64,000 nt of DNA from Balanoglossus misakiensis (taxonomy: Eukaryota; Animalia; Hemichordata). Shown piece after piece: positions 35,632 through 57,859 of the stretch. The position numbers and the translations under genes were made by a program. The first letter of the stretch is position 1. Every line of letters begins with the position of its first letter. The notes under the pieces were generated by a model. That model searched no databases. It saw only the letters and a list, made by a program, of their open reading frames with translations, and was not told where the DNA came from. The stretch is from positions 14,639,903-14,703,902 of the forward strand of contig CM082577.2 in NCBI GenBank assembly GCA_040954595.2, given 5' to 3'.

Positions 35632-36176
35632 TATGGGGTGAGAACACCGCCAAAAATAGCTGATGTCTTTATTTGGTAGTTTTCTCATCATTATTATGCT
35701 ATTATGCCATTATTTGGCCATTACCTTGGCCATTATTATGCTGTTATTTGGTTATTTGGCCGTTATTATGTCATTATTCAGTATTAATGTCTTTATTTGG
35801 AAGTTTTCTCATCATTATTATGCTATTATGTCATTATTTGGTTATTTGGTATTTATGTCGTGGTCTCGACATTACCTCGGCCATTATTTGGTTCACTCGA
35901 CATTACCTCGGTCATTATTATGCCGTTATTTCGTTATTTGGCCGTTATTATGTCATTATTCAGTACCGATGTCTTTATTTGGAAGTTTTCTCATCATTAT
36001 TATGCTATTATGTCATTATTTGGTTATTTGGTATTTATGTCGTGGTCTCGACATTACCTCGACCATTACCTCGGCCATTATTTGGTTCGCTCGACATTAT
36101 CTGACCTACTTTATTATTTGAACTCTTGCCCGGTACCCAGAATTCATTGCACAAAATCATTGCACAAAATGGCGAC
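35632..36176 (+). repeat. Left TIR with internal repeats
   Basis: Reverse complement of 57328-57859 with a few substitutions and one ~13-bp duplication. Block ATGTCTTTATTTGG.AGTTTTCTCATCATTATTATGCTATTATG occurs 3 times. Confidence 0.95.
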
Positions 36177-39100
36177 TGTACAAGTAATAACAAGACGGTT
36201 GTACGATATTGCTTCCGCACTTGGGTCAGTAACTAGACCAAGTGAGTTGGAAGCTGTGTTTGACGACATCGTTTTACAAGAAGAAGAACTGGTCCAATTA
36301 TGCATCCATACTGATGTCCCAGACAACGTGTTTGCACAACTCAGTCTTGCTATGACAACTTTGATAGATTTTCTTGATAATCAGTCACAGAACATTGGTC
36401 CAAGCGTCTGTTGGCCGTATCGTTCATACAAAGTGAGTTCCGGGGAGCGTGGTAGACCTCGCTTCGATATCCCGAAAGAACAGTTGCAGTTCTTTGTAGC
36501 AGAAAGATTTAGCGTACCAGCAGTGGCAAAAATGCTTGGCGTTTCGATACGAACCATACAAAGACGTATGTACGAGTATGGCATTTCAATTGCGGAATCA
36601 TATGCGGAGTTGTCTGATGAAGAGCTTGATGGAATGGTTACTGACATAACCAATCGTCTTCCAAACACGGGAATGAAAAGGCTACATGGACTGTTACTTG
36701 CCGAAGGTAAACGTGTGGCAATTTTTCGAGTCAGAGAAAGCCTTCGACGTGTAGATCACAGTGGAGTTGTCAGTAGGAGAAGAACTGCAATACGTAGGAG
36801 GCAGTACAATGTTCCGTGCCCTAATGCATTGTGGCACATAGATGGAAACCATAAACTGATAAGGTTAGTGTACTTATTGGTCAAGCCTGTGAAATACTCA
36901 AACCGAAGGTCTCCATGCGTATGGACAAATGTGTTCTAAAAAACGGCTGGCTGAAATATATTTATAGGATAATGTTGGTGCTCTATCCCAGCTAATTCAG
37001 CAATCACATAACAATTCACTAAACATTTTTCGGGTTAAATACTTGATGATATTAGCATAATTATGTTGAAAATATTTATATTGTATTTTAGGGCAATTTT
37101 TGCGATGTTATTAAAAAGTCCATTTCTCAGAAATTGCCTGTCCTATTTTAAAAAATGGTTTGTAGGATGCTCTGTTCTTATTGTGATGTGTAAAAGATTA
37201 TGATAAAAATATTATTCTCATTCGGTTGATTTTGGGGTCAAATTTTTGGGTCTCTTTTTCAGAAATTGCTTGTCCAGTTGCTTTGAACTTCGGTTTGCAG
37301 GTTCCGGGCAATGTTTGCCATCAGACTTATCTATCATCTGATAAAAAATGTATAAATTTAATGCTAAAGGTATCTTGTTGGGTTTGTTTTGGTAATTGAG
37401 TCCAAATAAAATTGATATATTTCACACTTGAGTGTACCAATTCTGATTAAATGGGAGGACAATGTCCTGACAGTATAAGATGAAATGTTTTTAGAAATTA
37501 AAGGGACAAAGTCTCTCTCTCGCTGCCCTTTTTTTTCCATTAATTATATTTGATACAAAACACCGTTTGTTATTCTACATGTGGATATATAGTGAATGAA
37601 CGTTCAACCACACACAACTTCCATCCTCCTTATAGACAGGAGAGTGAAAAAACTCGCCAAAATGAATAATCGTTCTTTACCATTTATTTATTTTGGGCAA
37701 GTTTTACTCTCATATCATACAAGAGGGATGGAAGTTTTGTGTGGTTGATCATTGATTCACTATATATCCACATGTACATTAACATAAACTGTGTCTGGTA
37801 TCAAACATAATTAATGGAAAGGGGGCAGCGAGAGAGAGACTTTGTCCCTTTAAGAAAGCTTGCATTTATGTCACTACACCCCGATTTAATTCACTGGCGA
37901 AGTATTTTGTGATATTGCAGCAAGTTGTATGAACTGACAATCTAAATAGGCAGGATCATATTTCACTAACAGCTCAACAATGACCAAAGTTTGTCTGACA
38001 TCCATCATAAGGGACAGACCATTTGATAGCCATGGATTATAGAAGGGGCTAAGAAGATTAAATGTTTGATTGAGTTATGTACAGTAACCATTCAATTTGA
38101 TATTGCATGTGATGCATGGATGGATGCAATATACCAAAATGGAGTTGTGGTGTCAATAATGCTATTTTTATCAGTAAAGGTTTCATTTTCAGACCTGTAT
38201 CAACATCACTTGACAAGCCATTTCTGTCAATTTGTTGTCCATAGATGGAAGTTAGTAGTACATGGTGGAGTGGATGGTTTCTCAAGAATGGTGGTCTATC
38301 TTGTATGCAGTGACAACAACAGATCTGACACAGTTCTTGAAAGTTTTGAAGATGCCACTCAAAGATTCGGAGTCCCATCTCGGGTGAGAGCTGACAAAGG
38401 TGGTGAAAATGTATCTGTTTCACTATTTATGCTCAATCATCCAGCTAGAGGACCGGGAAGGGGAAGTTTCATATCTGGCAAGAGTGTACACAACCAGAGG
38501 ATAGAACGTTTATGGCGTGATGTATTTTGTGGTATTTTATTTAAATACTACAACCTGTTTTACTACCTCGAAGATAAATTGCTGCTTGATATAGAAAGTG
38601 ACATAGATATGTTCTGTCTGCACTTTACATATTTACCAAGAATAAATCGAGATCTTCAGCACTGGCAAGAAGGTTGGAATCACCACAAACTTAGCACTGC
38701 AAATAGCAGATCGCCAAGACAGCTTTGGATTCAAGGTTCTATGGAAATGGCAGGCTCAAATTACAGACCAATGAGAGAACTATTTGAACCAAGAACTGAG
38801 GTATGTACAGGTGCAGGTTCCATGCACTTTCAAAAGTCCTCATGCTGAGCATTTGTTTCTCACAATTCACACATCAAAATATCTTCAGAGGGACATTTCC
38901 TAACTGAAAAGAATTGAAAATAAGTGCGACATACAAAATTTGTAATTGGCAGATGGTATCTCAAACCAAACTTTGCGACTGTTTCTTTTTAACTGGCTGA
39001 CCCTTGCTCTTTAAAGATAATATGTCAAAAGATGGAAAATAGGAGATATAGTGATGATGCTTAGTGTTCTTTTATGGAAATCACAGATAGTGGACGATAA

Positions 39101-39377
39101 TAAGAAACAGATTTGATTTTTGTGCTTTAAACTGAATCTTTTATATTTTTTAAAGGACGAAATCATGCATTATGGGATTGACTGGGATGGACCTCTTCCA
39201 GAAGATACAACAGATGCCAGAGTCGAGATTCCCATAGTTTGTTGTCCTTTAGAAGTTGATGAATTTGACGATCTCATCGGTTCCATTGACCCATTAAGAG
39301 ATGGTGATATGTACGGCATATCAGTGTATCAAGATGTGATTAACTTTGTCAAGAGAGTGTTGGAAAACAGCCAATAA
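36169..39377 (+). CDS. IS3EU-type DDE transposase, 3 exons (36169-36863, 38245-38800, 39156-39377), 490 aa, open
   Basis: HTH ([29 protein letters not shown]), [57 protein letters not shown] giving D..D(36)[21 protein letters not shown] introns in phases 2 and 0. Confidence 0.92.
37502..37849. mobile_element. TTAA-target palindromic MITE in transposase intron 1
   Basis: TTAA-AGGGACAAAGTCTCTCTCTCGCTGCCC ... GGGCAGCGAGAGAGAGACTTTGTCCCT-TTAA. Confidence 0.9.
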
Positions 39378-57242: not shown

Positions 57243-57327
57243 AGTTCATTTCAGCCTTCACTGTTTACCCACCACGCGTGCTGTTTCCAAGACTGTCGTC
57301 GGCCACGGCCCGCGAAACTTTCATACC

Positions 57328-57859
57328 GTCGCCATTTTGTGCAATGAATGCTGGGTACCGGGCAAGAGTTCAAATAATAAAGTAGGTCAGATAATGTCGA
57401 GCGAACCAAATAATGGCCGAGGTAATGGTCGAGGTAATGTCGAGACCACGACATAAATACCAAATAACCAAATAATGACATAATAGCATAATAATGATGA
57501 GAAAACTTCCAAATAAAGACATCGGTACTGAATAATGACATAATAACGGCCAAATAACGAAATAACGGCATAATAATGACCGAGGTAATGTCGAGCGAAC
57601 CAAATAATGGCCGAGGTAATGTCGAGACCACGACATAAATACCAAATAACCAAATAATGACATAATAGCATAATAATGATGAGAAAACTTCCAAATAAAG
57701 ACATTAATACTGAATAATGACATAATAACGGCCAAATAACCAAATAACAGCATAATAATGGCCAAGGTAATGGCCAAATAATGACATAATAGCATAATAA
57801 TGATGAGAAAACTACCAAATAAAGACATCAGCTATTTTTGGCGGTGTTCTCACCCCATA
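57328..57859 (-). repeat. Right TIR
   Basis: Reverse complement of 35632-36176. Confidence 0.95.

Follow-up and report, generated by a model that had tools for sequence, protein, structure and literature searches.

A 22-kb IS3EU-type DNA transposon of an acorn worm with a convergent gene, predicted to encode a Ubl-HECT ubiquitin ligase, that is probably a standing component of the transposon lineage

The stretch of DNA analyzed here (hereafter, the window) consists of 64,000 nucleotides from the acorn worm Balanoglossus misakiensis (NCBI GenBank assembly GCA_040954595.2, contig CM082577.2, positions 14,639,903 to 14,703,902 of the forward strand). It harbors a DNA transposon of 22,228 bp that carries two convergent multi-exon genes, one encoding a DDE transposase and the other one encoding a predicted HECT-domain ubiquitin ligase (hereafter, the ligase; Table 1). 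About 8.3 kb of this length, given as 22 kb in an earlier note on this DNA, is nested material located within introns or in the spacer, which leaves a core of about 13.9 kb. The terminal inverted repeats (TIRs) form a gap-free alignment of 526 bp with 523 identical positions, both opening with TATGGGGTGAGAACA, and TATGG marks either end of the element; the hexamer CTTTCA next to both TIRs is the 6-bp target site duplication (TSD), the chance of a match between two random 6-mers from the window being 0.055%. These numbers bear out the near-identical TIRs of about 530 bp and the CTTTCA TSD that had been read from the sequence earlier. The transposase ATG is located 12 bp past the inner edge of the left TIR. 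Altogether, the element is an intact, probably recently inserted two-gene IS3EU cut-and-paste transposon.

The transposase gene, modeled with three exons on the plus strand separated by GT-AG introns, encodes 490 amino acids (aa) without a stop and contains the catalytic triad D225/D282/E319, in which a stretch of 36 residues separates D282 from E319, as originally reported for a D..D(36)E enzyme of this length. Exon 2 matches the Pfam rva_4 family (E = 2.8e-73), and helix-turn-helix (HTH) matches lie upstream. The exon structures of both genes are predictions from splice signals and homology. The element displays the TA..TA (TAYGG..CCRTA) ends with TIRs and the 6-bp TSD of IS3EU/GingerRoot, an IS3-like DDE core with the first D between 100 and 300 aa from the start and without HHCC, and two convergent stop-free gene models, in agreement with the original IS3EU assignment. 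In PMC10045372, TA..TA ends and TSDs of mostly 6 bp define IS3EU, which is united there with GingerRoot; fungal IS3EU families end in TAYGG..CCRTA according to PMC12730594, and statements in PMC8232023 and PMC10853768, with Kojima 2019 as the source, have it that IS3EU elements encode two proteins. Compared by eye, the transposase core motifs agree with those of Repbase IS3EU elements given in Data S3 of PMC10045372, where the nearest ones appear to be IS3EU-1_CVi, IS3EU-4_DR and IS3EU-1_SK.

Among 1351 candidate relatives of the transposase, 1096 reach E = 1e-20 or better, and the named ones belong to corals, sponges, acorn worms and fish; over the full length, identity is 46–50% at best. No acorn-worm transposase closer than these was retrieved with exon 1 as the query (best match, 48% identity over 96%), and none of the 70 pattern matches in viral contigs encodes a transposase relative. 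The window contains a second IS3EU element, from another branch, on the minus strand at 726–2459, with an open 440-aa transposase frame (726–2048), 21-bp subterminal repeats (1990–2440) and, close to 2459, an end resembling TATGT; a convergent partner of this transposase would fall to the left of the window start. Within the TIRs of the 22-kb element lies a 182-bp tandem unit (35698–36061 and 57423–57786). A 182-bp unit is also described, in PMC11934779, for an IS3EU-like repeat of putative Hydractinia centromeres; this likeness in length may be a coincidence.

The ligase gene faces the transposase gene and is modeled with nine minus-strand exons that encode 772 aa with no stops, every intron being GT-AG, so the convergent open HECT gene of about 772 aa proposed previously is retained. 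A model with eight exons and 741 aa was dropped because the Saccoglossus homologue backs the extra exon at 54223–54131. The Pfam HECT match is confined to the C-lobe exon (E = 1.5e-12); a family profile compared with the PDB matches WWP1 over the whole HECT domain, both lobes included (E = 2e-28), and the model of the 70%-identical Ptychodera homologue matches AREL1 (E = 5e-14) and HUWE1 (E = 5e-13). The domain is bilobed and C-terminal, the catalytic Cys739 lies, as the earlier note had it, within PTSNTC, in the same column as the Cys of WWP1, and the C-terminus (...DFGNV) has the HECT-typical Phe four residues from the end. The protein is quite probably an active ubiquitin ligase.

The architecture of the ligase comprises a helix, a ubiquitin-like (Ubl) domain, a UBZ-like finger, a disordered linker and the HECT domain. 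The N-terminal domain had been called uncharacterised, a description that can now be replaced: in the AlphaFold2 model of the window protein (pLDDT 95.5) it adopts a beta-grasp fold, with structural matches to the TBK1 ULD (Z 7.5, rmsd 2.8, 82 aligned) and Ufm1 (Z 7.2), and most of the 50 matches listed are Ubl domains. The predicted fold is thus shared with the Ubl beta-grasp domains of TBK1, Ufm1, SAP18, RING1B (C-terminal domain) and USP7, from which the window domain differs in that no Pfam family is matched, Z stays below 8 and no Foldseek match has E < 0.001; the Atlas feature matches are all below 0.9 as well. Accordingly, the fold can be named, as a prediction, but not a sub-family or function. 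The Cys/His finger reported earlier is there, albeit with the spacing CxxC-x11-H-x3-C and not x12, and is kept in 22 of the 26 proteins with both Ubl and HECT found among 156 proteins examined.

Table 1. Coordinates of the transposon, its genes, the nested inserts and the interrupted target (window positions).
Feature	Position	Strand	Remarks
IS3EU/GingerRoot-type DNA transposon	35632..57859	.	22,228 bp, nested inserts included
Left TSD, CTTTCA	35626..35631	+	6 bp
Right TSD, CTTTCA	57860..57865	+	6 bp
Left TIR	35632..36157	+	526 bp, TATGG start; contains 182-bp tandem duplication
Right TIR	57334..57859	-	523/526 identical to left TIR
Transposase exon 1	36169..36863	+	aa 1-231; HTH region; D225 at 36841-36843
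Transposase exon 2	38245..38800	+	rva_4 integrase core; D282, E319
Transposase exon 3	39156..39377	+	with stop
Ligase exon 1	56523..57242	-	aa 1-240
Predicted ubiquitin-like beta-grasp domain	56577-56918	-	aa ~109-222; in ligase exon 1
Ligase exon 2	55843..55976	-	CxxC-x11-H-x3-C finger, aa 250-269, UBZ-like
Ligase exon 3	55292..55366	-	linker
Ligase exon 4	54131..54223	-	linker; supported by Saccoglossus homologue
Ligase exon 5	46333..46431	-	acidic linker
Ligase exon 6	44657..45170	-	HECT N-lobe start, GGPRRE aa 450-455
Ligase exon 7	43715..43955	-	HECT
Ligase exon 8	42683..42844	-	HECT
Ligase exon 9	42237..42517	-	HECT C-lobe; stop; catalytic Cys739 at 42339-42341
Nested TIR element	46742..53980	.	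7,239 bp; TAG..CTA ends, AAT TSD; ligase intron 4
LINE ORF inside 7,239-bp nested element	49648..52509	-	
Nested high-copy MITE	37502..37849	.	348 bp; TTAA TSD, AGGG..CCCT ends; transposase intron 1
Insert in spacer between the two genes	40014..40712	.	699 bp; skipped by X1 and X2 contigs
TatD-like target ORF, 5' part	35273..35631	+	Pfam TatD positions 67-160
TatD-like target ORF, 3' part	57866..58076	+	Pfam TatD positions 163-231

The association between the two genes was surveyed from the transposase side, in metagenome loci that contain transposase relatives, the best 80 of 520 confirmed ones being used; the search seeds favored one IS3EU branch, so that the share of loci with HECT need not hold for the whole superfamily. 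Downstream of the transposase, HECT is convergent in 35 of the 80 loci and on the same strand in none; upstream, it was detected on the opposite strand in 2 loci and on the same strand in 3, and the tail-to-tail arrangement anticipated in the earlier note is thereby recovered. After merging the loci into 65 families, downstream HECT is found in 20 of the 26 families for which 2 kb or more of downstream sequence is available, compared to any HECT upstream in 3 of the 19 with 2 kb or more on that side (Fisher p = 7e-5). The same side and strand recur in 28 families, and the nearest HECT match lies 166–2320 bp from the transposase. Among the 33 loci with enough flank, 7 have TIR pairs ending in TATGG, 6 of them with an exact 6-bp TSD (one being a C run); four of these seven TIR-bounded relatives enclose Ubl and HECT, two a C-lobe remnant, and one neither. 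The catalytic Cys is present in all 30 locus HECTs that reach its column, the other 5 of the 35 stopping short of it. In Amphimedon, two independently retrieved RefSeq models, LOC109580729 (Ubl and HECT) and LOC109580730 (rva_4 transposase), bear consecutive ids and are both on contigs of 418,507 bp, which bears on their proximity and not on their orientation. The conserved position and orientation, the TIR/TSD-bounded relatives enclosing the gene and the retained Cys uphold the earlier proposal of a dedicated transposon module, and we consider it very likely that the ligase is a long-standing gene of the transposon lineage.

Distance tests and trees were based on 20 of the 35 loci and the window, after removal of 7 near-duplicates and 8 loci with fewer than 150 HECT residues. 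Distances among the transposases are correlated with those among their HECT partners (Mantel rho 0.35, p = 0.0006, 21 pairs), and the two trees have 3 of 18 splits in common (random mean 0.24, maximum 4), with a concordant nearest neighbor in 5 of the 21 pairs. The congruence that the earlier note had looked for is therefore present in the distances and weaker than expected in the splits; the co-divergence appears to be real but loose, as if the two genes had long been associated, with a degree of exchange or noise. In a HECT tree of 15 loci, the window and 18 database proteins, the transposon-linked sequences are intermixed with RefSeq “G2E3-like” or uncharacterised models from fish, scallop, echinoderms and jellyfish, and the window ligase clusters with acorn-worm proteins at 100% support; a single separate clade of transposon-linked HECTs is rejected (AU p = 8e-30).

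Several points weigh against the ligase being a standing transposon gene. No HECT was found in the remaining 6 of the 26 families with a sufficient downstream flank, nor in the TIR-bounded locus L068, yet the family mates of the latter have it; the HECT profile applied to the loci was built from ligase relatives, so divergent partners could escape; all seven TIR-bounded relatives come from one assembly; and the loose tree congruence may be noise at 25–45% identity. The dN/dS check suggested earlier gave a mixed outcome, with between-family HECT values of 0.21 and 0.28 that are rough, given a dS of about 2 or saturated, and within-family values near 1 (0.94, confidence interval [CI] 0.44–2.51, and 1.53, CI 0.75–4.55), as expected of decaying copies. 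Interpretation of the value of 1.53 (loci L005 and L027) as positive selection was rejected because one of the pieces is frameshifted and the value is inflated. Two loci of the survey are peculiar. L027 contains two IS3EU transposase-HECT pairs in tandem (9525–17002 and 18442–20818), the second one of a different family, and the HECT-negative L019 (2665–4475, minus strand) has, past its transposase, two long frames of 359 and 254 aa on the opposite strand that possibly represent a different second protein.

The best database relatives of the ligase are models from Saccoglossus kowalevskii (72% identity over 636 aligned positions) and Ptychodera flava (70% over 781). Three Saccoglossus RefSeq models, on contigs of 6.5–14 kb, are 98–99% alike, and two of them are named “G2/M phase-specific E3 ubiquitin-protein ligase-like”; a fourth is 77–85% alike. 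A search with the Saccoglossus protein against 1.84 billion representatives yielded 2567 matches at E = 0.001. The intermixing seen in the HECT tree supports, but does not prove, the earlier surmise, based on sequence, that many “G2E3-like” gene models could be transposon genes; multi-copy models of this name in Saccoglossus are the nearest relatives of the ligase. The HECT N-lobe is 82–83% identical among the window, Saccoglossus and Ptychodera proteins, and the long linker is 54–64% identical; Saccoglossus and Ptychodera are deeply diverged genera, and the N-lobe identity points either to strong constraint or to horizontal transfer. The N-terminal parts differ among ligase relatives, which include Neuralized, UBX and SIX1-SD fusions. 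Some relatives in fish resemble fixed host genes or new fusions: the zgc:112970 cluster, Neuralized-HECT and SIX1-SD/UBX-HECT (P0238/P0277-P0281, P0178, P0248). The zgc:112970 cluster spans four characiform genera at 90% or more and looks like a fixed host gene; a literature text search for zgc 112970 found no paper. Elsewhere in the window, a frameshifted remnant of the Ubl-domain family (19065–19703, plus strand), likely another decayed ligase gene of the Ubl-HECT kind, lies 98 bp beyond a Gypsy-type LTR element (13964–18967) with 154-bp, 100% identical LTRs and an open 1243-aa frame.

By predicted structure, the named clusters nearest to the HECT part are chordate Neuralized-HECT and true G2E3 (TM 0.80, score 2219), compared to scores of 973 for HERC4 and 937/904 for WW-HECT; the TM gap is small (0.80 vs 0.74–0.76). 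A Basidiomycota cluster scores 0.92 by features, and the transposon-linked family extends to sponges. G2E3 orthologues are recognized by an N-terminal PHD/RING region, and no PHD family was detected in the homologues or when 53 relatives were aligned; the fetched matches that were scanned did not include true G2E3, which is hence, like the canonical outgroups, missing from the HECT tree. In Marin 2010 (PMC2837046), the G2E3 HECT subfamily is placed after the chordate/echinoderm split. Given this late appearance, the reach of the transposon family to sponges and the structural nearness, a transposon origin of the G2E3 HECT is plausible. A broader scenario, which we put forward tentatively, is that the Ubl-UBZ-HECT proteins of animal IS3EU elements represent an ancient radiation that lies behind many of the “G2E3-like” and uncharacterised HECT models of sponges, cnidarians, molluscs, echinoderms, acorn worms and fish and was domesticated repeatedly. 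Under this scenario, the vertebrate G2E3 HECT would stem from such a transposon gene, fused to an older PHD/RING part, and fish zgc:112970 and Neuralized-HECT would be further captures; what was likely an anti-silencing enzyme of a transposon would thus have been recruited into the host silencing machinery, in which G2E3 rebuilds pericentromeric heterochromatin.

In the mechanism that we envisage, each gene would be transcribed inward from its own end of the element, and the DDE transposase, for which family knowledge implies a cut-and-paste mode, would excise and insert the element with a 6-bp stagger. The UBZ-like finger of the ligase would bind ubiquitin that chromatin or repair proteins already carry, a substrate or cofactor would be selected by the Ubl domain, and Cys739 would transfer ubiquitin; the ubiquitylation of host proteins on chromatin or at repair sites would then ease silencing or allow insertion to be finished. 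UBZ-type fingers typically read ubiquitin at repair sites. G2E3 is described as a chromatin ligase for H3K14 in PMC12920882, and as acting on chromatin in PMC13061254. We consider host proteins the most likely target of the ligase, at about even odds. Such a target is favored by the alpha-kinase found in the same slot of rust-fungus IS3EU, from which it follows that the slot takes exchangeable protein-modifying enzymes, by the loose coupling to the transposase, by the habit of UBZ fingers and by the action of G2E3 on chromatin. Several facts count against it: the ligase is without the PHD/RING reader of G2E3, so that histone targeting is not transferable, the Pfam matches of the finger are under the cut-off (zf_C2HC_14, 1e-4; zf_UBZ, 0.089), and the finger is absent from 4 of the 26 Ubl-HECT proteins.

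It is possible, if rather doubtful, that the ligase, likewise a standing transposon gene, acts on its own transposase, either limiting its activity or stripping the transpososome off DNA after strand transfer, for which ClpX acting on MuA provides an analogy. A dedicated partner of this kind would account for the fixed linkage, the significant distance correlation and an excess of shared splits over the random mean; it is harder to reconcile with the low absolute number of those splits, the rarity of nearest neighbor agreement and the alpha-kinase of fungal IS3EU, and the contrast between the best ligase matches (70–72%) and the best transposase matches (47–50%) hints at module exchange or missing gene models. 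An indirect benefit to the element, from a ligase that modifies germline or immune functions or biases inheritance as a poison-antidote gene and takes no part in transposition or silencing, seems improbable: no antidote ORF or toxin-like domain is evident within the element and no test result points to drive, although purifying selection and long retention require some benefit, and the variable N-terminal parts of the relatives would be compatible with such a role. One-off capture of a host G2E3-like gene as passive Pack-type cargo, for which one could invoke the gene fragments captured by Selaginella GingerRoot elements (PMC6839031) and the zgc:112970-like fixed host genes, is highly improbable and largely refuted by the conserved position, and also runs against the carriage of whole genes rather than fragments and the deep divergence spanned by transposon-linked HECTs that form no separate clade.

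The copy in the window was compared with contigs from two sequencing runs, X1 and X2, the coverage of which leaves out the right-hand junction and ligase exons 1–4. These contigs span both genes without two of the nested inserts, one X1 contig departing from the window at 46741, the exact edge of the 7,239-bp insert, and the long ones differ from the window by 0–4 letters per 0.6–1.8 kb; they fit other copies of the element or another individual. Because the contigs skip nested inserts and differ by few letters, the insertion and its transposon family are likely young. Read depth in X1, taken as a hint only and not as copy number, is flat across both genes (about 135–195), compared to about 24 for the window allele in the TatD flank. 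The four coding differences checked, which are among the best-supported ones listed (39371, 39372, 42466 and 44748), are all nonsynonymous (S489R, Q490E, D697V and G515A); at the two ligase sites, D697V and G515A, the Ptychodera homologue carries the contig residue, which suggests private drift of the window copy.

The insertion interrupts a TatD-like ORF that is likely to have been dead already, because an in-frame stop follows immediately past the TSD. This target (34726–35631 and 57866–58200) is intronless and apparently multi-copy in runs X1 and X2, in which other alleles dominate at 35500 and 35509; a Cys/His-rich ORF lies directly upstream, and the TatD-like gene may be cargo of another mobile element. 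The 7,239-bp nested element, perhaps Academ-like, is mostly palindromic, with inner inverted arms of 579, 290, 209 and 190 bp and transposase-like fragments on both strands, and encloses an open 953-aa LINE frame of the endonuclease-RT type. At 3325–8852 of the window, transposase pieces on the plus strand (3325–4050 and 4943–5635) are accompanied by Myb/SANT-like frames on the minus strand (7210–7746 and 8433–8852), by eye presumably a PIF/Harbinger-like arrangement.

The word HECT is absent from the main texts of PMC10045372, PMC12730594 (and its supplement), PMC6839031, PMC11934779, PMC10853768, PMC8232023, PMC13343696 and PMC5718144, and a literature search, with Repbase reports, subscription papers and bioRxiv supplements outside its reach, found no paper on the IS3EU-HECT pairing. 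Names such as IS3EU-1_CGi_2p in Data S3 of PMC10045372 indicate that second ORFs are annotated in Repbase, and the chances that some entry there names the HECT ORF are about even. In many animal IS3EU elements, the second protein, unnamed in the open literature searched, is given a name by the present analysis. If eukaryotic cut-and-paste transposons regularly carry a ubiquitin writer, this would be a new way for them to act on the host, and aquatic animal genomes likely have fewer HECT ligases of their own than are counted, owing to transposon genes annotated as “G2E3-like”. With both frames open and nearly identical TIRs, the window copy is a good template for studies of IS3EU transposition and of the ligase. 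If the G2E3 HECT descends from the transposon family, a mammalian heterochromatin enzyme would be of transposon origin.

Among the known systems, rust-fungus TET+ IS3EU elements, as described in PMC12730594, have the same TAYGG..CCRTA ends, 6-bp TSD and opposite second gene for a protein-modifying enzyme, which in that case is an alpha-kinase (plus TET/JBP) in place of the HECT ligase. With IS3EU/GingerRoot in general, the window element shares the TA..TA termini, the 6-bp TSD, the position of the first catalytic D (225), the lack of HHCC and the core motifs, whereas its TIRs are 526 bp long, compared to 100–150 bp given for GingerRoot, and its second protein is Ubl-finger-HECT. Chordate G2E3 is the nearest canonical host HECT by predicted structure and the origin of the “G2E3-like” names, but contains PHD/RING, in contrast to the Ubl domain and C2HC finger of the multi-copy, transposon-borne ligase. 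Other DDE transposons, namely Ginger1 with OTU/Ulp1 and Zisupton with Ulp1/F-box, possess accessory domains of the ubiquitin/SUMO system; these eukaryotic DNA transposons resemble the window element in carrying such enzymes, which, however, are mostly peptidases fused to the transposase, whereas here a ubiquitin writer is encoded by a separate, convergent gene.

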